Shown in pieces: positions 8,435 through 23,838 of a DNA stretch of 24,750 nt. The translations under genes were made by a program, and so were the position numbers. The notes beneath the pieces are model-generated. The model searched no databases. It was not told the DNA's origin and worked only from the letters and a program-made list of their open reading frames with translations. Numbering within the stretch: position 1 is the stretch's first letter; each line of letters opens with the position of its first letter. This stretch comes from an uncultured bacterium (GTDB taxonomy: Bacteria > CAYUVA01). The DNA lies in NCBI GenBank assembly GCA_964448115.1, contig CAYUVA010000014.1, forward strand, positions 62,001 through 86,750, given 5' to 3'.

Positions 8435-8435
8435 T

Positions 8436-8457
8436 ACACCTGAATTTATTCGGGTGT
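8436..8457 (+). terminator. Hairpin directly after the pil operon (terminator or REP-like)
   Basis: ACACCTGAA-TTTA-TTCGGGTGT is a 9-bp stem with one G-U pair, starting 2 nt after the TAA of the Ig-domain gene. The U-tract is weak. Confidence 0.5.
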
Positions 8458-8461
8458 TGCT

Positions 8462-8630: not shown

Positions 8631-8660
8631 GGAGGTATTGGTTGCGGCCACGCTACTTTC

Positions 8661-8684
8661 AACTGTTGCGACGCCGCAACAGTT
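8661..8684. repeat. Perfect 10-bp inverted repeat
   Basis: AACTGTTGCG-ACGC-CGCAACAGTT. Confidence 0.8.
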
Positions 8685-8791
8685 ATCAACTTGGCGGTTA
8701 GGACACTCTGATCCCAAGCCGTGAGCATGAGCGAGCGGTCAATAAAAGACTTTAGGCTTTTGACTTTAGGAAAGAGTGAAATAAAGAGGAT

Positions 8792-8930
8792 CACGCAAAG
8801 ACGCAAAGAGGAAAGTGCTACCGTGATATCGTGAAGAGAGGATGGTGATGCAAGGTTAACTATTTCCGTGCTGAAACAGTTAACACATCACTCTATCATT
8901 TCCTCTTCGTGCCTTTGTGCCTTTGCGGTT
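8792..8930. repeat. ~140-bp nested inverted-repeat (MITE-like) element with octamer-repeat ends
   Basis: Left arm CACGCAAAG-ACGCAAAG-AGGAAA, right arm TTTCCTCTT-CGTGCCTTT-GTGCCTTT-GCGG. Internal stems GTGATG/CATCAC and GTTAACT(A)TTTC/GAAA(C)AGTTAAC. Confidence 0.55.
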
Positions 8931-9116
8931 AAGAAGCCTCAAGCCTAATAAACCACATATCCACAAATAGGTATTTACTTTTTTTGTAGATTGATGTATT
9001 GGATAAGATTGGCTGTTGCCTTTGGATACTTTGCAAGATTGCTGTCGAAGCTGGTGTTGTTGTTGATAGGTACAAAGGAACGAAAAACCTGTACAATAGG
9101 CATAGGGATCAGATAG

Positions 9117-10403
9117 ATGAACATTAAACTCAAGTACGGTGATGGTTATCGAACACTTAACTTACCGGAGAAAAACATCCTTGCAATTGTAGAAGGCAAG
9201 GATATCCCCCAGGACAGGCCGGTAAGAGACCAGGTGGCTGAAGCGCTCAATAACCCGATAGGCTGCCAACGATTATCCGAGATAGCCAAAAGCAAGAATG
9301 CCAGAAGCGCCGTGATCATCGTAAATGACTTCACGCGAGCCATACCCTACTTCGGTGATGATTATAATATGCTGATCGATCTCGCCAGTGAGTTGGAGGT
9401 TGGCGGCATCCCCAGGGAGGGCATCCGCTTTTTAGTAGCCACCGGCACCCACCGCCCCCATACCGATGCTGAGAACCTGGAGAACTTCGGCAGGGAGGTG
9501 GTGGAGAACTACCAGGTCATCAGCCACAACTGCGACAAGGACAATGTTTATCTCGCAACCATGTCATCCGGGCACGAACTCTGGGTGGATAAAGTTGTGG
9601 TTGAGTCCGATGTGGTTGTCGGCACTGGAATGATCGCCCCGCATTACTACGGCGGGATCAGCGGGGGACGGAAATCTATCCTACCTGGCGTTGTGGGTCG
9701 GGAGACCATCCGTGCCAACCACGCTATGATCATGCGACCTGGAGTAGGGATAGGGGCGCTGGAAGGCAATCCCATTGCCGAGGAGATGATGGAGGCTGCT
9801 CGTAAGGCAGGACTCGACTTTATCCTCAATGTCATCTTCAATAAACGCAAGGAGATAATCCTAGTTGTTGCCGGTGATATGGAGGCTGCCTTTAATGAAG
9901 GGGTAAGATTTTACAGGGAAAACTTCACCACCGAGTTCGATAAGCTCGCCGATGTTGCCATTATGAGCGCCGGCGGATACCCCAAGGATGTCGAGCTTTA
10001 CCAGGTGCAAAAGGCGCTGAACAACACCAAGGAAATGGTCAAACCGGGCGGAACCATTATCTGTATATGCGAAGCCAGAGAGGGAATCGGTTCTGCCAAC
10101 TTCGAGAAATGGCTCTCCTCGGTGAGCGACCCAATCGAACTCGAAGGCACCCCGGAGGAGAAGATCGTCCCCGGCGGCAACACGGCGGTCAATACCGCGG
10201 TGCGAATACTCTCCAAGTACCATGTCATTCTGATCACTGATATCCCCAAGGAGACGGTGGAAAGGATTCACTTTAACTATGCAAGCGACCTTGATGAGGC
10301 GCTGAAGGTGGCATACGACCGACACGGCGAGGACTTCAAGGCTTATGTAATCCCACAGGGAGGGTTCATATTCCCTAGATACATAGGAGAACACAAACCA
10401 TAG
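9117..10403 (+). CDS. larA: LarA-family nickel-pincer-dependent lactate/2-hydroxyacid racemase
   Basis: 428 aa. Motifs IIVNDFTR, LVATGTHR, HNCD, PHYYGGISGGRKSILPG, RANH, GGYPKDVELYQVQKAL, VKPGGTII, YVIPQG. Confidence 0.9.
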   Translation: MNIKLKYGDGYRTLNLPEKNILAIVEGKDIPQDRPVRDQVAEALNNPIGCQRLSEIAKSKNARSAVIIVNDFTRAIPYFGDDYNMLIDLASELEVGGIPREGIRFLVATGTHRPHTDAENLENFGREVVENYQVISHNCDKDNVYLATMSSGHELWVDKVVVESDVVVGTGMIAPHYYGGISGGRKSILPGVVGRETIRANHAMIMRPGVGIGALEGNPIAEEMMEAARKAGLDFILNVIFNKRKEIILVVAGDMEAAFNEGVRFYRENFTTEFDKLADVAIMSAGGYPKDVELYQVQKALNNTKEMVKPGGTIICICEAREGIGSANFEKWLSSVSDPIELEGTPEEKIVPGGNTAVNTAVRILSKYHVILITDIPKETVERIHFNYASDLDEALKVAYDRHGEDFKAYVIPQGGFIFPRYIGEHKP

Positions 10404-10419
10404 ATAAATAGGAGCTGCT

Positions 10420-11514
10420 ATGAGTTACATTGTTAAGCACGATGAGCTTTTTGACTTTTGTACTAAGATATTCATCGCCAAGGGAGTTCCGGAAAAGGAT
10501 GCCAGGACTACGGCAGATAACCTGGTTCAAGCCAACCTGCGCGGCATCGACTCCCACGGCGTTGCTCGGCTGAAAAGGTATGTGGATGGCATAACCGACG
10601 GCTTGATGATGCCTGATATCACCCCGGAGATCGTCCGCGAAAGCCCCTTTTCCGCCAATGTTGACGGCAAGAACGGTCTAGGACAGGTGGCTGGACTTTT
10701 CGGCATGGAAGTCGCTCTTAAGAAAGCAAAGGAAACCGGCATCGGCATGGTTACGGTGCACAACAGCAATCACTACGGGATCGCCGGTTACTATGCGATG
10801 ATGGCGCTCGAATACAACATGGTCGGCATCTCGATGACCAACGCCGCCCCGCTGGTATGCCCTACCTTCGGCAAGGATCTGATGTTCGGCACCAACCCGA
10901 TAGCCGTGGCTGCGCCTACTGACAAGGGCTATCCCTTCGTGCTGGATATGGCGACCAGCGTTGTGCCAAGGGGGAAGCTAGAGGTCTATAATCGCTTGGG
11001 AAAGCCGATCCCCGAAGGCTGGGCAATAGACGAGAACGGCAAGGTTACCACCGATGCAGGCAGGGTTCTGCAGAATATGCTTGCACGCAAAGGCGGAGGC
11101 ATACTCCCCTTGGGTGGAGCCGGCGAGCTGTTCAGCGGTTATAAGGGTTATGGCTTGGCGCTGTGGGTCGATATATTCTGCGGTCCGCTAGCCGGCGCTG
11201 CCTGGGGTACACATGTCTATGCCAAGAAGGATGGCAAGCCTCTTCCACCAAACATCGGACATTTCTTCATGGCTTTCAAGGTGGAGAACTTCGTAGATCC
11301 CGCTGAGTTCAAGCGCAACCTGACCCAGCAGCTACAGGAACTCAGGGATGGAAGCAAAGCCGAGGGCGAAAAGCGGATCTACATCCACGGCGAGAAGGAA
11401 TTCGAGATGACCGAGAAAAGAAGAAAAGAGGGATTTGACCTTGGCGAGAAGGTCTATTCAGCGCTTAAAGGCATCGCCGAGGAGACGGGAGTCGAGTTTC
11501 CCTGGAACTACTAG
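10420..11514 (+). CDS. Ldh_2-family NAD(P)-dependent malate/L-lactate/L-2-hydroxyacid dehydrogenase
   Basis: 364 aa. Motifs ANLRGIDSHGVARL, NSNHYGIAGYY, GTNPIAVAAP, VLDMATSVVPRGK, IPEGWAID, GYKGYGL, RIYIHGEKE. Confidence 0.92.
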   Translation: MSYIVKHDELFDFCTKIFIAKGVPEKDARTTADNLVQANLRGIDSHGVARLKRYVDGITDGLMMPDITPEIVRESPFSANVDGKNGLGQVAGLFGMEVALKKAKETGIGMVTVHNSNHYGIAGYYAMMALEYNMVGISMTNAAPLVCPTFGKDLMFGTNPIAVAAPTDKGYPFVLDMATSVVPRGKLEVYNRLGKPIPEGWAIDENGKVTTDAGRVLQNMLARKGGGILPLGGAGELFSGYKGYGLALWVDIFCGPLAGAAWGTHVYAKKDGKPLPPNIGHFFMAFKVENFVDPAEFKRNLTQQLQELRDGSKAEGEKRIYIHGEKEFEMTEKRRKEGFDLGEKVYSALKGIAEETGVEFPWNY

Positions 11515-11572
11515 GGCTGTTTAGCAGTGCTATCTAATACCCTCTCGACATAGCATAAGTCATTACCAGAAG

Positions 11573-11614
11573 GAGCGACCTTCCGTGTGCGAATTAGCAC
11601 CCGGAAGGGTGCTC
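11573..11614 (+). other. GC-rich intergenic stem-loop between the dehydrogenase gene and hdrC
   Basis: GAGC-GA-CCTTCCG-T-GTGC-GAATTA-GCAC-C-CGGAAGG-GT-GCTC. No clear U-tract. Confidence 0.55.
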
Positions 11615-11671
11615 TTACAAAACTAGGAATAAAAAGAAAACAGCTAATAGTTGTAGATTTATGGATGAAAT

Positions 11672-12283
11672 ATGAATAACAACGACAAAAGGATATACCG
11701 GCGAGTCGAAGACGAGAACTTCGCTGCCGAGGTCGCCAAGCGCCCCTTAGGTGCTGCCATCAAGAAGTGCCTCCAGTGCGGCACCTGCTCGGCGACTTGC
11801 ATGGTGCACAGGGTCAATCCCAACTACAATCCACGGCAGTTGATCGCTCAGACCGTGCTGGGATTGCGCTCGCTAGTGCTGCACTCGCCGATGATCTGGA
11901 TCTGCGCCCGCTGTAACTACTGCACTGCCCGATGCCCCAAGGATGTGCGCCCCGGCGAGATAATAACCGCCATCAGGGAGATTGCTATCGAGGAAGGCAT
12001 CGTAAACAATAAGGGAGTTCGACATAGCAAGGCTTTCAAGGAGGATATACTCGCCACCGGCAAGCTGAACGAGGCTTTCTTGCCCTTAAAGACGCTTCAC
12101 CAGGGGATAATTGGCGAGCTGCCCTATCTTCCCAGCCTATTCAAACATAAGAAACTCCCCAAGCCGCTCCCCAACTTCCTGCTCCCTAAAATTGAGGGGA
12201 TCGATGATCTGCGCCGGATGGCTGACAAGGCTAGGGAAATCGCACAGCGTCAGAAGGCTCATGGAACCAGTAAACACGGCTAG
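11672..12283 (+). CDS. hdrC: Heterodisulfide reductase subunit C-like protein (2x[4Fe-4S])
   Basis: CLQCGTCSATC and IWICARCNYCTARCPKDV, YNPRQLI, GKLNE. Upstream of hdrB. Confidence 0.87.
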   Translation: MNNNDKRIYRRVEDENFAAEVAKRPLGAAIKKCLQCGTCSATCMVHRVNPNYNPRQLIAQTVLGLRSLVLHSPMIWICARCNYCTARCPKDVRPGEIITAIREIAIEEGIVNNKGVRHSKAFKEDILATGKLNEAFLPLKTLHQGIIGELPYLPSLFKHKKLPKPLPNFLLPKIEGIDDLRRMADKAREIAQRQKAHGTSKHG

Positions 12284-12303
12284 CTCGACAAAGCAAGGAG
12301 AGA

Positions 12304-13188
12304 ATGATGACCATAAGATATGCCTATTATCCGGGATGCGCTGCCGAATCGACCGCTAAGGAAGCTGACCTCGCCACCAGGGCGCTTTGCAGGAGGCTTG
12401 GCATCAGCCTTGTTGACTTCGATCAGTTCAGTTGCTGCGGTGCTGGCATTGTCGATGAGGAAGATCCGCTGTTCGCCGAGGCTATAAACGCCCGCAACCT
12501 GGCAATCGCCGAGAAACAGGGGCTGGATATCCTCACCCTGTGCAATACCTGCCTGTTGACCATGAGCACCTATCTTCGGCGCTGGGGGGCTGATCAAAAG
12601 GCGCTTGAGCAGGTGAACGAGGTTCTCTCCGTTACCGGCTTGGAGTACAAGATGACCAATAAGGTAAAGCACCTGCTTTGGGTCATCGAGGATGATCTCG
12701 GCTTGGAGAGGCTCGCCTCGATGGTCAAAAGACCGCTTCGTGGTCTGCGGGTGGCACCGTTCTATGGCTGCCATATCCTGCGCCCGCCAGAGATTGTCAA
12801 CAGACAAGGTCAGGATAGCGATGACCCGCGCAGCCTGGAGAAGATCATCGAGATACTCGGAGCAGAGCCAGTCGATTATCCATCGCGGCTCGATTGCTGT
12901 GGATTCCATATACTGTTAGCCGATGCGGACACATCGCTCAAGATGAACGCCCGCTGTCTTGCCGATGCAACCGAGGAGCAGGCGGACTGCATGGCAACGC
13001 CATGTACCTTATGCCATATAAGCCTTGATATGTATCAAAAGAGGGCTGGGCGAAAGGCGGGGATGAGCTTCGATATGCCGGTGCTTCATCTTTCTCAGCT
13101 CATTGGGATGGCGCTGGGTATGAGCAGCGAAAGCCTGCAACTGGATCGAAACATCATCTCACCACAGAAGATATTGCAAAGATGTTAA
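12304..13188 (+). CDS. hdrB: Heterodisulfide reductase subunit B-like protein (two CCG domains)
   Basis: YAYYPGC, SCCGAG, INARNLAIAE, TLCNTC, VKRPLRGLRVAPFYGCH, DCCG, TPCTLCHISLD, PVLHLSQLIGMALG. Confidence 0.92.
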   Translation: MMTIRYAYYPGCAAESTAKEADLATRALCRRLGISLVDFDQFSCCGAGIVDEEDPLFAEAINARNLAIAEKQGLDILTLCNTCLLTMSTYLRRWGADQKALEQVNEVLSVTGLEYKMTNKVKHLLWVIEDDLGLERLASMVKRPLRGLRVAPFYGCHILRPPEIVNRQGQDSDDPRSLEKIIEILGAEPVDYPSRLDCCGFHILLADADTSLKMNARCLADATEEQADCMATPCTLCHISLDMYQKRAGRKAGMSFDMPVLHLSQLIGMALGMSSESLQLDRNIISPQKILQRC

Positions 13189-13215
13189 GTAGTTTTATGG
13201 ATAAGGTGAATAGAT

Positions 13216-16200
13216 ATGAGAGATAGAGCTAAAAACCAACGAATCGGCGTCTTTTTGTGCCGCTGCGGAGGGAACATCTCCAACACGGTCGATATAGATG
13301 AACTCAAGGCTTTCGCGCTCAAGCAGCCGGGCGTGGTCTTCTCCGAGTACCAGTCCTTCACCTGCTCCACCGAGGGACAGGGGCTTATCCAGGACAAGGT
13401 CAAGGAGGAGAACCTGGATGCCGTGATCATCGGCTGCTGTACGCCCAAGCAGTACGAGGATCTATATCGAGAGGCGCTTTCACATACCCCTTTGAACCCT
13501 TACAAGCTGGAGATGGTTAACATTCGCGAGCAGGTCTCCTATCCGCACCATCACGAGCCTCAAAAGGCTACAGCCAAGGCTAAGAAACTGCTTATCGGCG
13601 CTATCAACAAGGTGAAGCTGCTCGAACCCCTGGAGGTGAAAAAAGCTAAGGTTAATCGAGATATCGCCGTGATCGGTGGCGGAGTGGCAGGGATCAACGC
13701 CTCGCTGACCTTATCCAAGCTCGGCTTCAAGGTTTATCTCATCGAGAAACAGGTAACCATCGGCGGCGCCATGGCAAAGCTGGTCAAGACCTTCCCTACC
13801 GATGACTGCGCCATGTGTACGCTATCCCCTAAGCTCGACGAGGTGGGCAAGGATAATAACATCACCCTGATGACCTACTCCGAGGTGAGCGAGGTGGAGC
13901 GCATCCCTGAAGGTTATCGCCTTCGCATCCTGCGCCATCCGCGCTATCTTGACGAGGAAATATGCACCGGCTGCGGTAAGTGCAATGAGGTCTGCCCGGT
14001 CGAGGTTCCCAATCCTTATGACATGGGCTTGCACTCCACGAGGCGCGCTGCCTACAAGCCATTCCCCTCGGCTATACCTATAGCCTACTGCATAGAGCGC
14101 AATGGCATACCCCCCTGTCGAGCCGAGTGCGCCATAGACCAGGCTGCACAAGGCTACATAGCACTGGTCGCCAAGGGTAAATTCTATGAGGCTATGCGCG
14201 TGATACGGCGTGATAATGCTCTACCCACCGTCTGCGGTAGGGTATGCATGCACCCCTGCGAGGACGCCTGCACCCGCTGCAATATCGATGAGCCTATCGC
14301 CATCGCAGCCATCAAGCGCTTCGTTACCGATTACTATATTGAGAACCCGCCATCCGAGCCTCTGCTCCCCAAGATAAAAAAACGCAAGGAGAAGGTTGCC
14401 ATCATCGGCTCCGGTCCCGCCGGGCTGGCTGCTGCGCACGAGCTTGCCATGCACGGCGTGCAGGTTACCGTTTATGAGGCGAAATCGGAGCTGGGCGGGA
14501 TGCTCGCTCTAGGCATTCCCAGTTATCGTCTGCCCAAGAAATACCTCGATTATGATATCGATTACATAAGATCGCTCGGTGTAAAGTTCGTAACCAACAC
14601 CCGCATCGGCAAGGATCTGAGCCTCGCTGATCTGCGCAAGAAGCATGATGCGGTGCTCATCGCAGCCGGCTTGTCGCGCAGCTTCAGCATAAAGATCCCA
14701 GGCGTCGATCTGCCTGAGGTGATTCTCGGCGGGGATATGCTCGAACAGGTTCGCTTGGGTACCCCCCCCAAGCTTGGTAAGAGGCTGGTTGTTGTCGGCG
14801 GAGGCAATGTCGCCGTGGATGTTGCTCGAACCGCCAGGCGCCTCGGTGTCGAGGATATAACCATGATCTGCCTGGAGACCAGGGAGACCATGCCGGCTAT
14901 CGAGAAGGAGATCGAGGAGGCTGAAAAAGAGGGTATCAAGATTCGCCCCGCCATATCCCCAAAAGCCTTCAAGGAAGAAAACGGCAAGCTCACCGGGGTT
15001 GAGACCATCGAGGTGGAGCGCATCGACTTCTGGGAGGACGGTAGGCTGAAGCCGATCTTCAGGGAGAACACAGAGGACTTCATCCCCGCGGATAATATAG
15101 TCATGGCTATCGGGCAGGTTACCGATCTCGACTTTTTAACCAATCACTACAAGGTTAGCAATCGCAGGTTGATCGAGATAGATGATGAGTGCGCCACCAG
15201 CGTTAATAATGTCTTCGCGGCTGGCGATGTCGCTATCGGCGCCAGCACGGTTACCAAGGCTATGGGCTCCGGCAAGAAGGCTGCCCTGAATATCCTGAAA
15301 AGCCTTAACATCGAGCCTCGATACGATCCCATCTGGGTCTTCAAGGAGATGAAACGTTATATCAGCGCTGAGGAGGTCATCGAGGCGCGCAAGGGATACT
15401 ATGAGAAGACTAAACGACAGCAGATGCCCGAGCTTGAGCCGGATAAACGGGATGGCTTTGCCGAGGTGGAGCTTGGTTTCACTTCCGAGCAGGCGATGGC
15501 AGAGGCGCAACGCTGCCTTAACTGCGGGGGCTGCTCCGACTGTCGAGAGTGCATCGAGGTCTGCGAGAAGGAGTGCATCCACTTTGACCAGGTCGAACAG
15601 TATGTCGATATCGAGGTCGGCGGGGTGATACTCGCCACCGGCTGGAAGGAATACGATCCCAGCAAGCTGCACTATGGCTACAAGAAGTATCCCAATGTCA
15701 TAACCCAGATGCAACTGGCAAGGATGCTCGACCCGCTAGGACCAACCGGCGGCAAGGTAGTGCGCCCCAGCGACGGCAAGGAAGCTAAGCGTATCGTGAT
15801 GGTGCAGTGCGTAGGCTCTCGCAGCGCGGAGACAGGACATAAGGACGGGCATAGCTATTGCAGCCGGGTCTGCTGTATGGTCGCGCTTAAGCACGCTAAC
15901 CTGATCAAGCGCTACTTCACGCCCGATGCACAGATCTATATCTGTTACATCGATATCCGCGCTTATGGCAAGGGCTACGAGGAATACTACGAGCGCGCCA
16001 AGCAGGACGGAGTCAAGTTCATCCGCGGGCTGCCCGGCGAGGTCAGGGAACGCAAGCGGGACAATAACCTGCTGGTCTATGTTGATGATAGCAACACTAA
16101 CCAATTGCTGGAGCTTGATGCGGATCTGCTGGTGCTCTCCGCTGCCACCGAGCCGACCGCCCAGGAAGTGGCTGCCAAGTTTACCGTCTCGCGGGACGAG

Positions 16201-16629
16201 TCCGACTTCATCAAGGAGTTCCATGTCAAGATCCGCCCCACCGATACCAGCATCAAGAATGTCTTCGTAGCCGGCGCCGCCCAGGGACCAAAGGATATCC
16301 CGGATAGCATCGCCCAGGCGGGGAGCGCGGCTGCCTCCGCTGCTGGATATCTGGGGAGTGGATATATCACGCTAAATCCGCAGATATCCTATGTTGACTC
16401 CGAGCTGTGCCGTGCCTGCGGTCGCTGCGAGGAGACCTGCGAGTTCAAGGCTATTAAGGTGAATGAAGATAAACTATGCGCCGAGGTTGCCGAGACCCTC
16501 TGCGAAGGGTGCGGCAAGTGCACGGTGGTCTGCCCCACCGGCGCAGTCTCTGTGCACTCGTTCGATAATCAGCAAATAATGGCGCTGATCGAGGGATTGC
16601 TTGAAGAACCGGAAATGGAGAAGGTATAA
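13216..16629 (+). CDS. hdrA: Large HdrA-family flavoprotein with an inserted GltD-like NAD(P)H oxidoreductase domain (HdrL-type)
   Basis: HdrA N-terminus (GVFLCRCGGNI, VIGGGVAG, KTFPTDDCAMC, CTGCGKCNEVCP). GltD-like insert (PPCRAEC, VCGRVCMHPCEDAC, IIGSGPAG, VGGGNVAVDVAR, FAAGD, EAQRCLNC). HdrA resumes (ILATG, GPTGG, QCVGSR, YCSRVCCM, DIRAYGKGYEEYY, GPKDIPDS) and ends in a 2x[4Fe-4S] ferredoxin. Confidence 0.9.
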   Translation: MRDRAKNQRIGVFLCRCGGNISNTVDIDELKAFALKQPGVVFSEYQSFTCSTEGQGLIQDKVKEENLDAVIIGCCTPKQYEDLYREALSHTPLNPYKLEMVNIREQVSYPHHHEPQKATAKAKKLLIGAINKVKLLEPLEVKKAKVNRDIAVIGGGVAGINASLTLSKLGFKVYLIEKQVTIGGAMAKLVKTFPTDDCAMCTLSPKLDEVGKDNNITLMTYSEVSEVERIPEGYRLRILRHPRYLDEEICTGCGKCNEVCPVEVPNPYDMGLHSTRRAAYKPFPSAIPIAYCIERNGIPPCRAECAIDQAAQGYIALVAKGKFYEAMRVIRRDNALPTVCGRVCMHPCEDACTRCNIDEPIAIAAIKRFVTDYYIENPPSEPLLPKIKKRKEKVAIIGSGPAGLAAAHELAMHGVQVTVYEAKSELGGMLALGIPSYRLPKKYLDYDIDYIRSLGVKFVTNTRIGKDLSLADLRKKHDAVLIAAGLSRSFSIKIPGVDLPEVILGGDMLEQVRLGTPPKLGKRLVVVGGGNVAVDVARTARRLGVEDITMICLETRETMPAIEKEIEEAEKEGIKIRPAISPKAFKEENGKLTGVETIEVERIDFWEDGRLKPIFRENTEDFIPADNIVMAIGQVTDLDFLTNHYKVSNRRLIEIDDECATSVNNVFAAGDVAIGASTVTKAMGSGKKAALNILKSLNIEPRYDPIWVFKEMKRYISAEEVIEARKGYYEKTKRQQMPELEPDKRDGFAEVELGFTSEQAMAEAQRCLNCGGCSDCRECIEVCEKECIHFDQVEQYVDIEVGGVILATGWKEYDPSKLHYGYKKYPNVITQMQLARMLDPLGPTGGKVVRPSDGKEAKRIVMVQCVGSRSAETGHKDGHSYCSRVCCMVALKHANLIKRYFTPDAQIYICYIDIRAYGKGYEEYYERAKQDGVKFIRGLPGEVRERKRDNNLLVYVDDSNTNQLLELDADLLVLSAATEPTAQEVAAKFTVSRDESDFIKEFHVKIRPTDTSIKNVFVAGAAQGPKDIPDSIAQAGSAAASAAGYLGSGYITLNPQISYVDSELCRACGRCEETCEFKAIKVNEDKLCAEVAETLCEGCGKCTVVCPTGAVSVHSFDNQQIMALIEGLLEEPEMEKV

Positions 16630-16631
16630 AA

Positions 16632-17051
16632 GTGGAATTCGAGCCTGATATACTGAGTATTAACTGTAACTGGTGCGGGTATGCCGGCGCAGATAGCGCC
16701 GGGGCTATGAAGCTTGAATACCCGACCAGCATCAGGATCGCCAGGGTCATGTGTATGGGCAGGGTGGATCCGCTGCTGGTGCTGCACGCATTCGAGAAGG
16801 GCTATGACGGGGTGATGATGATCGGCTGCCATATCGGAGATTGCCACTATATCTCTGGCAATATCCAAGCCGAGAAGGAAGTGGAAAAGCTGAAAAAATT
16901 GCTCCATATCATCGGCATCGGCTCCGATAGGCTGCTGCTTAACCCGGTCTCGGCTGGCGAGGGACCTGTTTATGCCAGGGTCGCAAACGAGTTCTACAAG
17001 AAGATACAGGAGCTAGGACCTAACCCCTTGAAAGCGAAAGCGAAGGCATAA
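16632..17051 (+). CDS. mvhD: MvhD/FlpD [2Fe-2S] protein (methylviologen-reducing hydrogenase delta subunit family)
   Basis: GTG start. Motifs FEPDIL, CNWCGYAGAD, RVMCMGRVDP, GYDGVMMIGCHIGDCHY..GN, VSAGEG, ELGPNP. Confidence 0.93.
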   Translation: MEFEPDILSINCNWCGYAGADSAGAMKLEYPTSIRIARVMCMGRVDPLLVLHAFEKGYDGVMMIGCHIGDCHYISGNIQAEKEVEKLKKLLHIIGIGSDRLLLNPVSAGEGPVYARVANEFYKKIQELGPNPLKAKAKA

Positions 17052-18178
17052 TGGAAAAGTTTGATGTAAAACTGCTTGAATGTATCCAATGCAATAAATG
17101 TACCATGCACTGCCCGCTTCACGCTGCGGACATCACCTACTCCCCGCGTGAGCTGATACTCAGGGCATTGCTCGGCAAAGAAGATGAGCTGCAACAGGAC
17201 AAGGATATCTATCGCTGCCTCACCTGCTATACCTGCTACGAGGTCTGCCCCTCCAAGAACAAGCTGGTCAACTTCGTCTTCGATGCCCGAAAGGAGGCGC
17301 TGCAAAAGGGATATCTATCCGAGTGTAAGCACGGGATGATCCTGCGCAGCATACAGAATATGCAAGCCAATATCGATGTCAGCCAGAACCGCACAGAGTG
17401 GCTGGACCCTGCCCAGGTCTCTGATACGAGCGATACGATGTACTTCGTCGGCTGCCTCCCCATCTTCGATAATATATTCACCCATACCGACAGCACCAAC
17501 ATCGGCAGGAGTGTGCTCAAATTGCTCAATGCTGCCGGGATCAAGCCCTACATATCGCCGGATGAGAAGTGCTGCGGGTATGACCTGCTCTGGAACGGCG
17601 ATAGGGATAACTTTAACCGGCTGGCTGAGCACAATATCAAGATGATAAAGGACAAGGGGATAAAGACGGTTGTCCTCTCCTGCGCCGAGGGGTATGTAAC
17701 CCTCAAAGAACACTATGCTGAGCTATGGGGGGATGGGAAGCCTGAGATCTACCATATCTCGCAGTACCTGGACAAGCTGATCAGCGACGGAACATTGAAG
17801 CTGACCAAGGAGGTTAACAAGCGGGTAACCTATCATGACCCCTGTCGCTTAGGGAGGATCGGCAAAGAATACGAGGCACCGCGCCGTGTGCTAGCCGCCA
17901 TTCCCGGAGTCGAGCTTATCGAGATGCCGCGCAATAAAGCCGAGGCGGTCTGCTGCGGAGTGGGCAACTTCTCCAACTGCGACTCGGTAACCAAGTTCAT
18001 CCAGCACGACCGCATGACAGAGGCAGCCTCGACCGGCGCCGAGGCGGTCATTACCACCTGCCCCAAGTGCAGGATACACCTTAACTGCTACCTGGACGGC
18101 AAGCCGATAGAGCCTATTGATGGGATTCGATTAGTTGATCTAACCGAGTTGGCTGCGGAAGCGCTGGAAGAGGAGTAG
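17051..18178 (+). CDS. HdrD-like Fe-S oxidoreductase (4Fe-4S dicluster plus two CCG domains)
   Basis: CIQCNKCTMHCP, CLTCYTCYEVCP, YFVGC, EKCCG, SCAEGY, VTYHDPCRLGR, VCCG, TTCPKC. TAATG overlap with mvhD. Confidence 0.87.
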   Translation: MEKFDVKLLECIQCNKCTMHCPLHAADITYSPRELILRALLGKEDELQQDKDIYRCLTCYTCYEVCPSKNKLVNFVFDARKEALQKGYLSECKHGMILRSIQNMQANIDVSQNRTEWLDPAQVSDTSDTMYFVGCLPIFDNIFTHTDSTNIGRSVLKLLNAAGIKPYISPDEKCCGYDLLWNGDRDNFNRLAEHNIKMIKDKGIKTVVLSCAEGYVTLKEHYAELWGDGKPEIYHISQYLDKLISDGTLKLTKEVNKRVTYHDPCRLGRIGKEYEAPRRVLAAIPGVELIEMPRNKAEAVCCGVGNFSNCDSVTKFIQHDRMTEAASTGAEAVITTCPKCRIHLNCYLDGKPIEPIDGIRLVDLTELAAEALEEE

Positions 18179-18248
18179 AAAAAAATCTAAGGTACCAAAT
18201 CGGGAGAGAATTGGGTTATATAGAAAGGTCTAGTAGGATCTAAAGATA

Positions 18249-19773
18249 ATGGAAAGTTTTAATATAACATTGATTTTAATTATAGGTTCTATATTTATTA
18301 TTCTATATTTAGGTTTTTTATGCATACAAAATATAACCCAGGCCGAGAGATGCCCGGTGGATACCATCATTTACAGAGAATCTCTGCTTAACACACTAAA
18401 TGGCTGTCTATTATGTAACCGAATTGAGGGTCATTTTTTTTCTCCTGTAAGTATAGCATCTTCTTCAAACTATATATCACATATTGCAATTCATAATCAA
18501 TTTGTTTTGTTGTTGTTCATTCCTTTTGCGCTGATACATAGAATACTACCGCTTGAGATTTCATTAACAATTTTACAAATAATAATATTGTATGGAATCG
18601 GTTCACTTTTGTTGTTTAGATATTTTTTAGATGAAAATATGGATAAAAATACATCGCTATTATGTGCTTTACTATTTTTGTTTAACCCTCAACTATTCCT
18701 TATATCCCAAGAATATCATCCAATTGTCTTTAGCATTCCATTAATTATACTTTTCATTATGTCAGTTAAACATTCAACATATATTACTATTATTTTGACC
18801 AGCATTTTTTTAACACTTATTAGAGAAGATCTTAACTTCACCTTGGTATTATTGGGAGTGTATATATTCTTTTGGGGGAGCAATACCTGGAGCAATGTTA
18901 ATATGAGAAAAGCAAGAATTTCAGGACTAGTATTATCTCTTAGCGCGGTTTTTTCTTACCTAGTTTACAATAATTATTTAGTCAATCTTTTCGCTCCATA
19001 TAAGCTCAATCCATGGAACCGCTTCGAACCGTTTGGAAGTAGCTTGAGTCAGATTATGATTACTGTTTTCTCACAACCGCTGTTCACTATGGAACAACTA
19101 CCTTGGTTAGATATATCAAAATGGCTGATTGCTATTCTGCTGCCGCTTGGTTTTTTGCCATTGATAAGACCCCATTTGATTCCTTTGGCAGTGAATTCTT
19201 GGGCGTTAGTGTTATTTTCGCGGTTCTCTGAGGATATGCTACCCGATGCAAGATATCATATACCTCTTTTATGTCTATTATTTATAACAATGCCAATAGC
19301 TATTAATACCATAAAAAACAAAGCTACTGTTCTAAAGTATATTAAAATATATTTAATCATCTTATTGATTTTTAATTTTACATTCGTGATCTTATTCGAT
19401 TACTGGGAATTCGTTCAGCATGGCTATATTGTATCAGCGAATTTCGCTAAACGACCCAACCATGAATTCCATATAATTAAGGATAAATATCTGCTTGATT
19501 CTCTGGAAGGAGAAATCATTGTCAGCAGCTTTTATCTTAGACACTTCAGAAATGCGTATCCTTTGCATGAGGGTATTTTAGACTATGTACGGGAGCCAGA
19601 TGTCATTTTAATAGATAAGGACACAAGCTGGCTGGCCAATGCAGGATATTAGCTATAACATGAAGATTATCGACCATTTCACAGATGAAATAACCTCAAA
19701 AGAAAAATATGAAGTGATGTACGAAAGCACAAGATTTTTTATTATATCAAAATTAATAAGTAGGAGTAAATGA
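18249..19773 (+). pseudogene. DUF2079-like polytopic membrane protein (GT-C-like) with a frameshift near the 3' end; the main ORF is 18249-19652
   Basis: Multi-TM 467 aa ORF with HIAIHNQFVLLL, LFNPQL, EYHP, LIREDL, LLPLGFLPL, RYH. The +1 frame is open from 19615 to a TGA at 19771-19773 that forms an ATGA overlap with the next gene. (GCTG)2 duplication at 19627-19634. Confidence 0.6.
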
Positions 19774-21065
19774 TGAGAATTAATATTCTAATTACAAATG
19801 CAATAAATTTATTGGTTGTCGAAACAGCAATGAGTTATCAAATATGGGAAAAGAATCCATTAAACCCAATTTTATCAGGATCTACCTCAGAAACTTATTT
19901 CGATTTCATGGGAATAGGAGGTTTTTCTGTATTGTATCTTCCTGAGGTAGATCCGGTTTATCCCTTCAAACTATGGTACACAGGTTATGGACTTGAACCT
20001 GTTCCTTCTCCACCTTATTTTTCTTACAGACAGAGGATAGGGTTTGTAAAATCATCTGATGGGATCAACTGGATAAAGGTGCAGGGACCTGGTGAATATG
20101 GTGAAGTTATTAAGTTAGGTGATCCAGATGATGAGGATGATGTACATGTAACTTATCCAATCGTTTTTTATAACGAGAATAAAGGTGGCTACACAATGCT
20201 ATATACGGGGGATAGAGGATTATATGGTCAATTATTTACTGCTTTTTCCTATGATGGAATCCATTGGGGGAAATATCAATTTAATCCAATTTTTGATTTT
20301 GGCAATTTACCGACTCCTTTTAGCAAATGGTTTGTAACTCCAAACTGGCGATGTATGACAAGTGCCTCTTCTCTAGTTAAAATTAATGATAATTCATATT
20401 TATTATTTATAAATGGCAGACAGGATCTTTCAAGTTCTATAAATCCCACATCATATATAGGTAGAATTTCTTCTAATAATCTAATTGGCTGGAACTTTTC
20501 ACAAGATTTAGTTGTTTTATCGCCTGAATTTTTTACAGATGCTTTTGATAATATAGGTTTAGGTTTCTTAGGCGGTGTTGATGTTATATTAAAAGATAAT
20601 AAGTATTATTTATATTATACAGGATTGTCCATTGAAAATTTCTATTGTACAGAAATTAAAGAAAACTTTCGTGGAGAAAGAATAGGATATGCCACTTCAT
20701 CTGATGGTATTCATTGGAATAAATGTTACACTCCTCCAGAATTAAACATTACAAAATATGGATCTACTCTTGATAAAGGAAATATTGGAGATTTTGATAG
20801 TTATAGCGTTAAATGGCCGCGAGTAATTAAAATAGATATTAATGGTGATGTATCCTATCGTATGTATTATATAGGAGAAATGAAAATTGATGAGGATGAG
20901 ATTATAACTCAGTTGGGTTATGCTGAGTTAATATTTGAGAATGATGAATGCTATTATTATATTAAAATACCATTAAATAGCTTTATTTCGTTATTTGTAT
21001 TAATATCAATATATACATTAACCCTGATGAAGATTTATAAAGGATCTGTAAATGAGTACAAATAA
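19770..21065 (+). CDS. Five-bladed beta-propeller glycoside hydrolase-like protein (GH32/43/130 clan) with a C-terminal membrane anchor
   Basis: Repeated blades WEKNPLNPIL, KLWYTG..RIGFVKSSDGINWIK, MLYTG..AFSYDGIHWGK..NPI, LYYTG..RIGYATSSDGIHWNK, RMYYIG..LGYA. Hydrophobic N-terminus and C-terminal IPLNSFISLFVLISIYTLTLMKIYK. Confidence 0.72.
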   Translation: MMRINILITNAINLLVVETAMSYQIWEKNPLNPILSGSTSETYFDFMGIGGFSVLYLPEVDPVYPFKLWYTGYGLEPVPSPPYFSYRQRIGFVKSSDGINWIKVQGPGEYGEVIKLGDPDDEDDVHVTYPIVFYNENKGGYTMLYTGDRGLYGQLFTAFSYDGIHWGKYQFNPIFDFGNLPTPFSKWFVTPNWRCMTSASSLVKINDNSYLLFINGRQDLSSSINPTSYIGRISSNNLIGWNFSQDLVVLSPEFFTDAFDNIGLGFLGGVDVILKDNKYYLYYTGLSIENFYCTEIKENFRGERIGYATSSDGIHWNKCYTPPELNITKYGSTLDKGNIGDFDSYSVKWPRVIKIDINGDVSYRMYYIGEMKIDEDEIITQLGYAELIFENDECYYYIKIPLNSFISLFVLISIYTLTLMKIYKGSVNEYK

Positions 21066-21151
21066 CATCCTTTCATGGGTATCCAATATCGGTTCACGGT
21101 CAACAGTTGACAAATGGCGGTTTAATATCCCCCACTGTCATTCTCATATAG

Positions 21152-21174
21152 GCAAGACCTTAGTTCTTGCTTTT
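21152..21174 (+). terminator. Possible weak intrinsic terminator after the AT-rich islet
   Basis: GCAAGA-CCTTAGT-TCTTGC followed by TTTT. Confidence 0.35.
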
Positions 21175-21212
21175 AAAAAAAGTTTAGGATAGAAAGTCAA
21201 GGAGGACTTAAA

Positions 21213-22733
21213 ATGGGATTAGATAATAATAAACTCGAAGACCTCAAGGGATTCCTCAAGGAAAAAGGGATCCTGTTCAAGGATAGAGGCTTGGAGGGCT
21301 ACATGGGAGATGCCTCCTTTATGGTGCTGGGCATACCTCCGATAGTCATATTCCTGAGAACCGAGGAGCAAGCGCTGGTTGTGGTCGATTATGCGGTGAA
21401 GAATAGGCTCAAGGCGACCATTCGCGCAATGGGTTCAGGCACAGCTGGCGCCACCCTAGCCCCGGATGATACGATAATACTCGTGGTAGAGAGCCTCGGA
21501 GTAACCAATAAATGGGGTCAAAGGTTGGCTATAGTTCCCTTCAAGATAGTTGATAAGAAGGGAAATGAGGTCGAGGAACCAGACCGTTGCGATGACAGCG
21601 AGTATTATGTCCGCACCCCGGCAGGCGCCTCCACAGAGGAGCTTGACCGCGCACTCAAGCCGCATGGCTATCATGTCGCCGTAGTACCCTCTAGTGGATG
21701 GAGCAGCGTGGGGGGGAATTTTTCCACTAATGCAGGTGGAAACGGCACCACTACTTATGGCACCTTCAAGGATATAGTCAATCACCTGCGCATGATCGTT
21801 ACCGATAATAATGGTGCTAAGATTATCGAGATCGATGATGTCGATGAAATAAAGAAGATCGGCGGACACCAGGGGCTTTACGGCATCATCACCGAGCTTG
21901 ATGTTCGCATCGTTCCCATAAAGACCGAAGAGCAGCTCTTGTCCGCTGTGGTCGCCATAGAGGCTGCTGACATCGAGACGGTTGGCGAGCAGGCTGGAAG
22001 GCTGATGCTGAAGGTGCAAGAGAATATACCGGTCATCATCGGCGAGTTTCTGCTGGTCGATGCCCTGCTCCTCTCGGCAGATGATCCGCTGCGCAAGGAT
22101 GCTGAGCTTGGCGAGTTCTTCGATATCGATAAGGACAAGATGAAGATGCTCATTCTCTACCAGGGCATCAAGGATAAGATCGGCGATAAGCTGGAAAAGT
22201 TGGTTGAGGATATCAAGGGCGCTGCCTACAAGGAAATCAGCCTGGCAGGCTTTAAGACCATGCTCGGTGTGCGCAAGGCTGCCACTGGCAAGTCGCTTCA
22301 GCGCGTCGCCATTCCCGGCTTCGAGGATATCTTCGTCGCGGACCTGACCAAGCTGGGCATCGTGCTCAAGCGCATCTTCGAGATCACCAGCGGCACGCTT
22401 CCAGGTCGCCCCATCGGGCATCAGTACATAGACGGCGCGGTGATCCACTACCGCCCCCAGGCACAGGTTACCGAGCGCGAGTTCAAGAAAGCCTGGGAGC
22501 TGAACAATAAGCTCGGCGAGGAGATCTTCGGCAATGTGGACAAGTACGCTACATATAAGCGCAGGGAGCATGGACTTGGCTTGGAGCTTTATGCCTCATC
22601 TGATGAGCCAAAGCGCAAGGAAATCCTGGCGATGAAGAAGAAGTATGATCCAGCAGGCGTCTTCAGCCCGCACCTTTTAAGCGAGAAGCCTAAGCTAAAA
22701 TTCATTGGCGATCTCCTGGCAGGGATAAAGTAG
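21213..22733 (+). CDS. FAD-binding oxidoreductase, divergent GlcD / D-lactate (D-2-hydroxyacid) dehydrogenase family
   Basis: RBS AAGGAGG. VAO/PCMH-type motifs IRAMGSGTAGA, PSS..SSVGGNFSTNAGG, YGTFKDIV, GHQGLYGIIT, GHQYIDGAVIH, REHGLG, KKKYDPAGVFSPH. Confidence 0.8.
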   Translation: MGLDNNKLEDLKGFLKEKGILFKDRGLEGYMGDASFMVLGIPPIVIFLRTEEQALVVVDYAVKNRLKATIRAMGSGTAGATLAPDDTIILVVESLGVTNKWGQRLAIVPFKIVDKKGNEVEEPDRCDDSEYYVRTPAGASTEELDRALKPHGYHVAVVPSSGWSSVGGNFSTNAGGNGTTTYGTFKDIVNHLRMIVTDNNGAKIIEIDDVDEIKKIGGHQGLYGIITELDVRIVPIKTEEQLLSAVVAIEAADIETVGEQAGRLMLKVQENIPVIIGEFLLVDALLLSADDPLRKDAELGEFFDIDKDKMKMLILYQGIKDKIGDKLEKLVEDIKGAAYKEISLAGFKTMLGVRKAATGKSLQRVAIPGFEDIFVADLTKLGIVLKRIFEITSGTLPGRPIGHQYIDGAVIHYRPQAQVTEREFKKAWELNNKLGEEIFGNVDKYATYKRREHGLGLELYASSDEPKRKEILAMKKKYDPAGVFSPHLLSEKPKLKFIGDLLAGIK

Positions 22734-22749
22734 CTCGAACACGATCTTC

Positions 22750-22778
22750 TTGACATAGCATCCTCTGAACATTATATT
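22750..22778 (+). promoter_or_regulatory. Near-consensus sigma70 promoter for the terminal AT-rich islet
   Basis: TTGACA (22750-22755), 17-nt spacer, TATATT (22773-22778). RBS AAGGAG at 22791-22796 before GTG at 22805. Confidence 0.7.
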
Positions 22779-22804
22779 AACTACTGAGAAAAGGAGTCGA
22801 TATT

Positions 22805-23392
22805 GTGTTCAGATGGATAGACGAGCTGAATAAACTAAATAAATGGAGATACCCACTTGCTGGCTATCAAGGTCTGTTAAAACTAGCCGAAAACCCTTGG
22901 CAGAAATACAATAATTTATTCAAATTAAAGTCAATTTTGCTCGGAATGTCATCATCTATTGATATTTGGGGCAATTTATATAGACATAAAATAAAAAATT
23001 CCTTTATTAATAATGATTATACTGCCTTAAAATCAGATTGGGAGGCAATAGGAAAAGATATGAAAAATGCAATAAGATCCTATTCTGATCATAACGATGA
23101 ATTAAAAATATCTTTGGATAATATTAATGATATACCTGAAGATATCCAAAATGCAATAAAATCCTTTCGACAAGCATTAACAAATTTATTAGATATAATT
23201 AGATCAAATAAGCAAATAAAAGATGATTTACAAGAATTACTAAAAAACTACCAAGATAATGAAGAGCAGTTAATAAATGAATTAGAAAAATATAAGGATA
23301 TCCATGAGACAATAAAAGATATAATTGTATCTTTTAAAAACATACAAAATAAGTTGATGTTATTACAAAATAATAAGAAAGATATTTATTGA
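22805..23392 (+). CDS. Hypothetical protein with an 'ALKSDWEAIGKDM' motif and a C-terminal coiled coil
   Basis: 195 aa, GTG start with RBS. GMSSSIDIWG...DYTALKSDWEAIGKDMKNAI resembles small proteins I recall being encoded just upstream of DUF2335 genes. K/N/Q/E-rich helical tail. Confidence 0.65.
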   Translation: MFRWIDELNKLNKWRYPLAGYQGLLKLAENPWQKYNNLFKLKSILLGMSSSIDIWGNLYRHKIKNSFINNDYTALKSDWEAIGKDMKNAIRSYSDHNDELKISLDNINDIPEDIQNAIKSFRQALTNLLDIIRSNKQIKDDLQELLKNYQDNEEQLINELEKYKDIHETIKDIIVSFKNIQNKLMLLQNNKKDIY

Positions 23393-23393
23393 T

Positions 23394-23831: not shown

Positions 23832-23838
23832 TGCTAAT

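Follow-up and report, generated by a model that had tools for sequence, protein, structure and literature searches.

A run of eight co-oriented genes lies on the + strand of a 24,750-nt stretch of DNA from an uncultured bacterium (assembly GCA_964448115.1, contig CAYUVA010000014.1, positions 62,001 to 86,750), which is called the window here and in which positions are counted from the first letter. The genes encode, in this order, a LarA-type racemase, an Ldh_2 dehydrogenase, HdrC, HdrB, a large HdrA-type protein (HdrL), MvhD, an HdrD-like protein and a flavoprotein that is referred to as FADb4. To judge from sequence comparison and structural modelling, the cluster is real, has a fully syntenic counterpart in one distant genome and represents a variation on the theme of the HdrA module, with a plausible link to hydroxyacids. 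It is tentatively proposed, with a confidence that stays a little below even, that the products of the eight genes make up one soluble redox system around HdrL, linked to NAD(P)H and ferredoxin and equipped with a 2-hydroxyacid/2-oxoacid arm. HdrA-based complexes belong, to our knowledge, to the few systems known to carry out flavin-based electron bifurcation, and the cluster gives a testable donor/acceptor couple for an Hdr-type complex, namely a chiral 2-hydroxyacid, together with eight defined proteins.

The gene content had been described in an earlier note made from the letters of this DNA, and its eight + strand open reading frames (ORFs), their coordinates and their domain matches were all recovered in a domain scan of 21 non-overlapping ORFs out of the 57 window ORFs of at least 80 amino acids (aa). 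The first gene, larA (9117..10403), encodes a LarA-superfamily 2-hydroxyacid racemase of the nickel-pincer nucleotide (NPN) type with Lar_N and LarA_C domains, and is followed by ldh_2 (10420..11514), which encodes an NAD(P)H dehydrogenase of the type-2 malate/L-lactate/sulfolactate family with an Ldh_2 domain. The Hdr genes begin with hdrC (11672..12283), for an HdrC-like subunit with two [4Fe-4S] clusters and Fer4 dicluster matches, and hdrB (12304..13188), for a CCG-domain subunit with two complete cysteine motifs. Then come hdrL (13216..16629), for a protein of 1137 aa in which HdrA is combined with an NfnB/GltD-like insert for NAD(P)H, flavin adenine dinucleotide (FAD) and Fe-S clusters, mvhD (16632..17051), for a [2Fe-2S] electron connector of the MvhD/FlpD type with a FlpD match, and the hdrD-like gene (17051..18178), whose soluble product has two [4Fe-4S] clusters and two CCG domains. 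The set is completed, beyond an AT-rich insertion, by the gene for FADb4 (21213..22733), a divergent GlcD/D-2-hydroxyacid-dehydrogenase-like FAD enzyme of the VAO/PCMH fold with a partial FAD_binding_4 match.

From larA to hdrD the genes are separated by gaps of 16, 157, 20, 27 and 2 nt, followed by a one-base overlap: mvhD starts 2 nt past hdrL, the end of mvhD and the start of hdrD have one base in common, and the widest gap is the 157 nt of the ldh_2/hdrC junction. The sole + strand terminator-like site within 9117-18178 is found at 16055, inside hdrL. The overall counts of such signals are uninformative (12 terminator-like sites in 8300-23000 against 12.9 in shuffled sequences, and 29 promoter-like sites against 21.3), and an Rfam scan of the whole window gave no match. 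The absence of the usual partner genes also stood up, as the 21 ORFs scanned gave no match to hydrogenase large or small subunits, formate dehydrogenase, Flx or Etf, and the ETF family is likewise without a match in these ORFs or in 17 ORFs scanned from the syntenic locus described below.

Conservation of the cluster and of its two parts

Nothing above 55% identity to the LarA of the window exists among 5.8 billion clustered proteins. About 40 relatives at 49-55% identity form a distinct group, and the next ones drop to 46% or less. When an alignment of the LarA group was used to query one genome per species, 56 loci were obtained. LarA is 47-55% identical in 29 of them, mostly metagenome-assembled genomes (MAGs) of Zixibacteria, while in the remaining 27 (28-39% identity) the partners are absent save for one weak HdrD-like match in locus L038. 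Ldh_2 is found directly downstream of LarA in 26 of the 29 loci, the others being two contigs that stop at larA and locus L053, which has glcD instead. A canonical GlcD lies within 10 kb downstream in 17 (confirmed by Pfam as FAD_binding_4 plus FAD-oxidase_C in L003, L008, L026 and L053), and an upstream HdrD/GlcF-like protein with two [4Fe-4S] clusters and two CCG domains is present in eight. The complete hdrC-hdrB-hdrL-mvhD-hdrD-FADb4 block is found in a single locus, L015 (JADHTQ010000023.1, labelled Bacteriovoracaceae).

L015 has all eight genes in the order and orientation of the window, with identities of 50, 54, 56, 51, 59, 58, 52 and 51% from larA to FADb4. Its flanks, with an MFS transporter and a PPDK-like gene, are unrelated to the pilMNOPQ genes beside the window's cluster, and because the flanking genes differ, the unit can be taken to run from larA to FADb4 in both genomes. 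An indirect third instance is provided by one Myxococcota contig of 12,883 nt with relatives of FADb4 (GAB4299321), HdrB (GAB4299347) and LarA (GAB4299364). Membership of the same contig was derived here from identical longest-contig sizes. L015 served as a control, in which the accessions for FADb4 and HdrB differ by four, the distance expected from the order of the genes. The linkage of larA/ldh_2 and the flavoprotein gene to the hdr genes in relatives, on which the earlier note had let its proposed module stand or fall, is kept in L015 and, for LarA, HdrB and FADb4, on the Myxococcota contig. The eight-gene arrangement is seen in at least one other distant genome and probably occurs in a second one. 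In a quick maximum-likelihood tree of 66 LarA rows, the proteins of the window, L015 and Myxococcota are long branches with an unresolved mutual order, placed inside a clade of 49 rows and outside a Zixibacteria-type group of 46 rows (Shimodaira-Hasegawa-like approximate likelihood ratio test, 99 for both).

The Hdr part has a distribution of its own. Among 26 FADb4-family matches on contigs of at least 10 kb, 12 share the exact longest-contig size with a top-120 HdrB match (55750, 67055, 65100, 19788, 29832, 12883, 23600, 11412, 18211, 14123, 55402 and 227643 nt), and such exact coincidences are judged very unlikely to arise by chance. Only 12883 recurs among the LarA matches listed. A LarA (P0135) and an HdrB-like protein (P0110) that both report a contig of 4647 nt are a possible but unconfirmed further larA-hdrB linkage. 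On this comparative evidence the cluster is a union of a larA-ldh_2(-glcD) unit with an Hdr/FADb4 unit, apparently joined in a few deep lineages.

Loci with larA, ldh_2 and glcD recur in Zixibacteria (L003, L004, L007, L008, L010-L012, L014, L016, L017, L021 and L025-L028), where the neighbours are the housekeeping genes yebC, ruvCAB and queH and also a patatin-like gene; in Pfam searches of 72 further ORFs from 13 Zixibacteria loci, neither transporters nor larBCE were matched. The GlcD and HdrD-like proteins of Zixibacteria are only 23-27% identical to those of the window. A racemase, an L-type NAD(P) dehydrogenase, a D-type flavoenzyme and a CCG protein have been brought together there via non-orthologous parts, which supports a functional link between them.

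Another explanation is that two independent units have come to lie side by side, a larA-ldh_2 pair and an HdrL/HdrCB/MvhD/HdrD/FADb4 complex, with no common substrate or electron flow. This would agree with the presence of larA-ldh_2 without the Hdr block in 28 of the 29 loci of the LarA clade, among housekeeping genes in Zixibacteria, with at least ten FADb4/HdrB contigs that have no LarA-clade match among the matches listed, and with the position of the widest gap, 157 nt, exactly at ldh_2/hdrC. It is harder to reconcile with the fact that both units are joined in the same order at only about 50% identity, with a third lineage having the 12.9-kb contig, that the identities to L015 are uniform over both units (50-59%), and that the larA-ldh_2 unit of Zixibacteria separately recruits another GlcD and another CCG Fe-S protein. 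Independence of the two units is considered unlikely, although it keeps an appreciable share of the probability; even if the coupling were false, two conserved units would have been delimited, larA-ldh_2(-glcD) and hdrCB-hdrL-mvhD-hdrD-FADb4.

The Hdr proteins and the flavoprotein

The motif CxxCxxCxxxC occurs twice in HdrC, at residues 33 and 78, and the NCBIfam matches of this protein, the QmoC N-terminus with 78.6 bits and HdrC TIGR03290 with 77.6 bits (cut-off 160), are both under their cut-offs. HdrB has two CCG domains (3.5e-28) with cysteines 12/44/45/80/83 and 156/198/199/234/237, and matches the HdrB structure 8rvu_b over its full length with 187.5 bits; in NCBIfam, SdhE scores 252.8 bits (cut-off 500) and HdrB TIGR03288 214.9 bits (cut-off 345.15). 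MvhD matches FlpD with 152.9 bits (5e-45) and has five cysteines at 12, 15, 41, 66 and 71.

The body of HdrL matches HdrA (5odc_A) with 604.5 bits in two stretches, which are split by an insert at residues of about 291-770 (about 298-779 in the structural match). This insert matches NfnB (4ylf_B, 271 bits), 5jca_L and GltD, and PRK12771 covers residues 294-800 with 500 bits. The score against NCBIfam HdrA2 is 743 bits, under the cut-off of 1100, and the protein has dinucleotide-binding GxGxxG/A motifs at 154, 398 and 528 as well as four CxxCxxCxxxC motifs. In the accessible part of PMC2702500, HdrL is defined by an HdrA body into which a GltD/NfnB-like module for NAD(P)H binding is inserted and by an adjoining mvhD, and both features are present in the window.

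The HdrD-like protein has its best NCBIfam match in TfrB (158.9 bits, cut-off 385) and its best structural match in 9ojn_A, an 'iron-sulfur-binding reductase' of 1042 aa (112 bits). Its first CCG motif is without the final CxxC and one CCG domain is complete. A link to fumarate or succinate, to which the best matches SdhE and TfrB could point, was rejected, as the SdhA/TfrA flavoprotein is absent from the window and from L015.

An exhaustive search for HdrD-like proteins gave 9545 matches at E<=1e-3. Fusions were scanned in 25 of the best 150 relatives (23 of the 35 with at least 500 aa, plus the two closest). Ten are MvhD(FlpD)-Fe-S-CCG fusions; four combine an NfnB/GltD-like module with the Fe-S-CCG part, one of them (P0434, 1146 aa) also with MvhD; six have a doubled CCG part, two have Fe-S and CCG parts with an extra N-terminal sequence, two are unfused and one is fused to FAD_binding_4. 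MvhD is fused to the HdrD-like part in 11 of the 25 in all. The fused relatives include P0346, P0347, P0353, P0354, P0362, P0365, P0368, P0374, P0381, P0488, P0434, P0389, P0407 and P0439. P0434, which has NfnB-like, ferredoxin, MvhD and CCG parts on one chain, would amount to an NAD(P)H-to-CCG enzyme that lacks HdrA.

For the flavoprotein, the earlier note had suggested a GlcD/D-lactate-dehydrogenase-like enzyme. The likeness to GlcD holds over the full length in a profile alignment, but the protein is no canonical GlcD or Dld and belongs to a divergent family. In Pfam, FAD_binding_4 is matched with 64.7 bits (9.5e-18) at profile positions 60-131 only and FAD-oxidase_C is not matched at E<=1e-3; the score against the curated GlcD model TIGR00387 is 64.4 bits (cut-off 567.9), and the match to NCBIfam YdiJ is weak (34 bits). 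The family comprises 87 proteins at E<=1e-10, with 39-52% identity and lengths of about 497-514 aa, which are labelled only as 'FAD-binding oxidoreductase'. In hhalign, a 65-member FADb4 profile aligns with canonical GlcD of Zixibacteria over 431 columns (probability 99.6%, 26% identity), and a conserved insertion in the FAD domain, some 25 residues long, accounts for the gap in the Pfam match. The idea that FADb4 is a GlcD in truncated or broken form was rejected, as the protein is of full length, has a family of 87 members and owes its Pfam gap to that conserved insertion.

Invariant among the 65 sequences are R354, E371-D372, H403, H412 and E452-H453. H403, H412 and E452-H453 align to the 'GH..DG..H' and 'EHGIG' motifs of GlcD, with H412 two positions off in a gapless stretch, and the histidines and glutamate of these motifs are presumably ligands of a metal or of the substrate. 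The AlphaFold2 model of FADb4 has a mean predicted local distance difference test (pLDDT) value of 91.2, and Foldseek aligned it with the D-lactate dehydrogenases 9qit and 8jde, LctD (7qh2_C) and AGPS at template modelling (TM) scores of about 0.65-0.76. The identity to LctD and to the D-lactate dehydrogenase structures is 16-18%. The best structural matches of the family profile are the D-lactate dehydrogenase/glycolate oxidase 9qgz (76.6 bits) and then LctD (60.7 bits). Taken together, profile and model comparisons predict that FADb4 is a divergent yet complete flavoenzyme of the GlcD branch. An Atlas feature search gave clusters with FADb4 look-alikes in Asgard archaea and Pseudomonadota, which can serve as a lead only.

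The earlier note had allowed that the HdrD-like protein could be the partner of the flavoprotein, and this possibility is now favoured by two observations. In L015, the end of hdrD (17756-18907) and the start of the FADb4 gene (18904-20403) have 4 nt in common, and a model of the HdrD-FADb4 complex passes its controls. With FAD included and custom alignments, the complex reached a score of 0.92, the best of three controls being 0.15; of 157 solved complexes, 116 attain the mark used for this score, as do 2 of 215 mismatched pairs. Contact agreement between runs was at least 96% and partner pLDDT at least 90. The modelled interface comprises residues 6-46 of HdrD, which hold the first cluster (Cys 11/14/17/21), and residues 73-75, 161-163 and 33-36 of FADb4 as well as 101-106 of the family-specific insertion. 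The model thereby places the first Fe-S cluster of HdrD against the predicted FAD site of FADb4.

Such a pair could also work alone. HdrD-FADb4 would then be a stand-alone D-2-hydroxyacid:disulfide (or quinone) oxidoreductase and HdrL-MvhD-HdrCB a separate NAD(P)H:ferredoxin/disulfide bifurcating enzyme, with only a thiol/disulfide carrier in common. A heterodisulfide-reducing HdrD/GlcD complex has been proposed for Verstraetearchaeota, Bathyarchaeota and Archaeoglobus (PMC6421429 and PMC6783470, in the sections available), and the controlled complex model, the gene overlap in L015 and the CCG domains that HdrD itself has, one of them complete, would suit an enzyme of this kind. By contrast, the fusion to MvhD in 11 of 25 HdrD relatives, in one case also with an NfnB/GltD-like module, and the base shared by mvhD and hdrD argue that HdrD is wired to the connector on the HdrA side, and the missing CxxC of the first CCG motif speaks against an independent function as well. 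A stand-alone HdrD-FADb4 enzyme is regarded as unlikely.

The hydroxyacid enzymes and possible electron flow

LarA matches Lar_N (188.9 bits, 8e-56) and LarA_C (91.4 bits, 7e-26) above the cut-offs and over the full length. Aligned to 6c1w, all catalytic and cofactor residues are kept (H112, H176, K186, H202, R74, Q296 and K299), and these seven are invariant in an alignment of 38 clade sequences. They are equivalent to the two catalytic histidines of reference LarA (H108 and H174), the cofactor tether Lys184, the nickel ligand His200, and R75, Q295 and K298. R75, K184, H200, H174 and K298 are named in the accessible text of PMC7583248. The best NCBIfam match is the malate racemase LarAH6/Mar2 (NF052593) with 435.7 bits, under the cut-off of 500, and the lactate racemase NF033504 follows with 351.3 bits, under the cut-off of 460. 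Scores against structures are nearly level, with 246.7 bits for Mar2 (6d6z), 232.5 for LarA of L. plantarum and 217.5 for LarA_Ip.

As far as the available parts of PMC7583248 go, Desguin 2020 proposed the loop Y172-K173, 'GHK', Q293 and K351 as specificity positions of Mar2. The loop after the catalytic histidine is Tyr-Tyr in the window (Y177-Y178; Tyr-Phe in the clade) where Mar2 has Tyr-Lys, the motif at the cofactor lysine is GRK in place of GHK, and helix alpha-14 has Thr356 in place of Lys351; the residue preceding the catalytic lysine is Gln in both (Q298 in the window). The two lysines that are thought to hold the second carboxylate of malate are missing, because LarA has Tyr178 and Thr356 at these positions. 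Compared with Mar2 (LarAH6) and LarA, the window protein is alike in fold, domains and catalytic and NPN-binding residues, while the specificity residues partly differ. A clean malate racemase was rejected as an assignment, the specificity positions differing and the Gln alone being common to Mar2.

Ldh_2 matches PF02615 with 428.6 bits (2e-128) over profile positions 1-333 of 333. Its best structural match is the 'malate dehydrogenase' of P. horikoshii (1v9n, 371.9 bits), and the sulfolactate dehydrogenase of M. jannaschii (2x06) scores 240.6 bits. The substrate-defined equivalogs that were compared are those for sulfolactate, ureidoglycolate and diketogulonate; the best NCBIfam match is L-sulfolactate dehydrogenase with 288.5 bits (cut-off 500), and the others score 222.2 (cut-off 356), 206 (496.2) and 149.6 bits (316), all under their cut-offs. 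Lactate, which the earlier note had named first, is not borne out as the substrate, as LarA and Ldh_2 are under every curated equivalog cut-off and their best matches are of the malate and sulfolactate types. The candidate substrate is likely a C3-C5 2-hydroxyacid, and by sequence malate, lactate, 2-hydroxyglutarate and sulfolactate are all possible.

In the proposed joint system, an NAD(P)(H) site would lie in the NfnB/GltD-like insert of HdrL, while the HdrA flavin would split or merge electron pairs and the C-terminal ferredoxin-type clusters would be part of the same protein. HdrC-HdrB would form a thiol/disulfide arm, and MvhD, the HdrD-like protein and FADb4 a second arm that ends in a D-2-hydroxyacid/2-oxoacid flavoenzyme. 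LarA would interconvert the D and L forms of the hydroxyacid and Ldh_2 would exchange electrons between the L form and NAD(P)H. Oxidation of the hydroxyacid, at a potential too positive for NAD+ alone, would be enabled by low-potential ferredoxin electrons that are merged at the HdrA flavin; in reverse, NAD(P)H would drive the reduction of ferredoxin and of the oxoacid. Such a ferredoxin-assisted oxidation with NAD(P)+, or its reverse, is suggested by LctBCD, an analogous system whose genes are often found with that for LarA. What the genomic and modelling evidence shows is the gene content, the conserved order, the domain fusions, the fold and a modelled HdrD-FADb4 interface; assembly into one complex, the direction of electron flow, bifurcation itself and the substrate are inferred. 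The system may also feed NADH into Hdr and may be self-contained, as the earlier note had inferred.

Several points weigh against this joint system. The counts given above, with larA-ldh_2 lacking the Hdr block in all but one locus of the LarA clade and FADb4 and HdrB sharing contigs without a listed LarA-clade match, imply that the two units can work apart, because they mostly occur separately. The argument from contig sizes is indirect, and the 4647-nt coincidence involves a LarA from within the Zixibacteria group. FADb4 and hdrD are parted by 3 kb of inserted DNA in this genome, which makes their co-transcription uncertain, and the HdrD-FADb4 model, made with custom alignments, may owe its score to a resemblance to solved GlcD/Fe-S assemblies, 9ojn among them. 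Ldh_2 is redundant for simple oxidation, given a D-specific flavoenzyme and a racemase, and if all three enzymes acted on one substrate beside a confurcating complex, a wasteful ferredoxin:NAD+ reaction would result; either the substrates of LarA, Ldh_2 and FADb4 differ or the logic is a different one. Nor is it explained why one HdrA core should have two arms of the CCG type, HdrB and HdrD.

The same eight proteins could serve as a reductive electron sink, in which NAD(P)H would be the donor, HdrL would bifurcate electrons to ferredoxin and a 2-oxoacid, FADb4 would make the D-hydroxyacid, and LarA and Ldh_2 would equilibrate or re-oxidise it. The architecture would be identical to that of the joint system described above. 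By standard potentials the reaction is near equilibrium, so that its direction is set by physiology. NfnB-type inserts bind NAD(P)H, as seen from the structural matches and from HdrA-NfnB of anaerobic methanotrophic (ANME-1) archaea in the available part of PMC9012536. On the other hand, no direction is fixed by the sequence. The characterised GlcD-family enzymes that we know of act as hydroxyacid oxidases or dehydrogenases, and this counts against a sink, which is considered very unlikely.

A different logic would be an enantiomer relay on an internal metabolite. NAD(P)H would reduce a 2-oxoacid to the L-hydroxyacid by way of Ldh_2, the nickel racemase would invert L to D, and FADb4, as the D-specific flavoenzyme, would re-oxidise the D form and pass electrons of more positive potential via HdrD and MvhD to the Hdr core. 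Inversion of the stereocentre would in this case provide a soluble one-way valve for electrons from the pyridine-nucleotide pool to Fe-S/CCG chemistry and would not serve the use of racemic substrates. A relay would fit the recurrence of larA-ldh_2-glcD beside housekeeping genes in Zixibacteria, where the annotated neighbours include no transporter, and would give a reason why the racemase is most tightly associated (26 of 29 loci) with an L-dehydrogenase that is otherwise redundant. It is nevertheless thought to be distinctly unlikely.

The joint system around HdrL can be compared with several known ones. Large HdrA proteins with a glutamate-synthase/NfnB-like NAD(P)H module, mvhD and hdrB/hdrC are also found in the HdrL clusters of Desulfobacterium autotrophicum (HdrL1-3 with MvhD) and Syntrophobacter fumaroxidans (Sfum_0819-0824) and in HdrA-NfnB of ANME-1, for which NAD(P)H-linked bifurcation or confurcation has been proposed in the accessible parts of PMC2702500, PMC5947623 and PMC9012536. 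The clusters of sulfate reducers and ANME-1 differ in that they come with dsrABC, formate-dehydrogenase-like Fe-S proteins or a separate hdrA, and larA, Ldh_2 and the GlcD family are unmentioned in those parts. According to the same portions of the three papers no HdrL complex has been purified, and HdrL and the HdrA-NfnB fusions with MvhD are described from genomes and proteomes.

In Acetobacterium, the Etf-dependent LctBCD works with LarA. LctBCD (Ldh-EtfAB, 7qh2), with a lactate racemase in its operon, is like the window in combining a GlcD-family flavoenzyme and LarA with a flavin-based bifurcating module. It differs in being Etf-based, whereas the window is without etfAB, its module would be of the HdrA type, and HdrCB, HdrD and Ldh_2 are additional. 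Flx-Hdr, Mvh-Hdr and Fdh-Hdr all combine an HdrA(BC)-MvhD core with a partner that can be exchanged. The same core with an exchangeable dehydrogenase or reductase partner is described for MetFV-HdrABC-MvhD in the available sections of PMC9012536. In contrast to these four, the partner module of the window would be a 2-hydroxyacid dehydrogenase with a racemase. The proposed HdrD-GlcD complex and the fused YdiJ-type D-2-hydroxyglutarate dehydrogenase, as described in the excerpts available, likewise have a GlcD-like flavoprotein next to or fused with a 2x[4Fe-4S] and CCG protein; the HdrD of the window, however, comes from a group that is often fused to MvhD and lies inside an HdrL/HdrCB cluster, and FADb4 is a separate family.

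Associations of LarA with such partners have been tabulated. In Table S1 of PMC7583248, group 1 of LarA is associated with COG0277 (35%) and Etf (32-33%), and homologue group 4 with COG0247 (39%), COG0277 (17%) and the MvhD-type COG1908 (17%); COG2055 (Ldh_2), COG1148 and COG2048 do not occur in two supplementary files of that paper. Literature searches, with subscription-only papers outside their coverage, gave no description of an Hdr complex with a 2-hydroxyacid dehydrogenase and a racemase, and those for a lactate racemase in Zixibacteria gave no match; papers that mention both a heterodisulfide reductase and a lactate racemase looked irrelevant, to judge by their titles and the openings of their abstracts. 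We know of no substrate for bacterial HdrB/HdrD-type CCG proteins where DsrC is lacking. If the coupling proves true, the cluster would be an Hdr-type counterpart of the Etf-type bifurcating lactate dehydrogenase, would give a physiological context to an uncharacterised LarA clade and to an equally uncharacterised GlcD-like family of 87 detected members, and would explain the frequent MvhD-HdrD fusions.

Inserted and flanking DNA

The interruption between hdrD and the FADb4 gene (18249..21065) had been noticed as AT-rich, and this is real: the GC fraction is 0.28-0.35 at 18501-21000, compared with a value of about 0.50-0.58 for the cluster. It is not empty, however, but has two ORFs on the + strand, for a DUF2079 membrane protein of 467 aa (2.4e-25) and for a protein of 431 aa with weak matches to beta-1,2-mannobiose phosphorylase and mannosidase (GH130-like). 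Because the two genes overlap in L015, which is without the insertion, a lineage-specific insertion of about 3 kb into a once translationally coupled hdrD/FADb4 pair is suggested. By this comparison two unrelated, apparently foreign genes have been inserted specifically in this genome, and the AT-rich stretch neither belongs to the cluster nor marks a boundary of the system. A check for direct repeats flanking the insertion, as a mobile-element signature, found none, and PADLOC gave nothing on the insertion and the downstream region beyond weak coiled-coil-type matches.

The FADb4 gene itself is intact in the window. Its product aligns to that of L015 across residues 10-499, and a Shine-Dalgarno-like AAGGAGGA precedes the start. 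An ORF of 371 aa runs antisense within the gene (21456-22571, - strand) and is most likely a shadow ORF of a GC-rich gene. Past FADb4, a second AT-rich block at 22805-24750 (GC about 0.25-0.34) encodes a coiled-coil-like protein of 195 aa and a DUF2335 protein; a further ORF of this block is open-ended and matches HSDR_N weakly. FADb4 thus stands as an island of normal GC content, because foreign-looking stretches lie on both sides.

A second foreign-gene insertion is seen in a Zixibacteria locus, where a type I restriction-modification methylase and a specificity subunit lie between ldh_2 and glcD (L026:12495-15330). In another (L028:18-1237), the LarA match consists of two tblastn segments that meet at 362, which suggests a frameshift or an assembly error of the MAG. 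Upstream of larA in the window, 683 nt at 8435-9116 are non-coding, with weak promoter-like sites and no Rfam match. A complete type IV pilus assembly set, pilM-pilN-pilO-(pilP-like)-pilQ, occupies 1507-6405 and is followed by an unknown ORF of 179 aa and, at 7010-8434, by a Big_1/invasin-like repeat protein.

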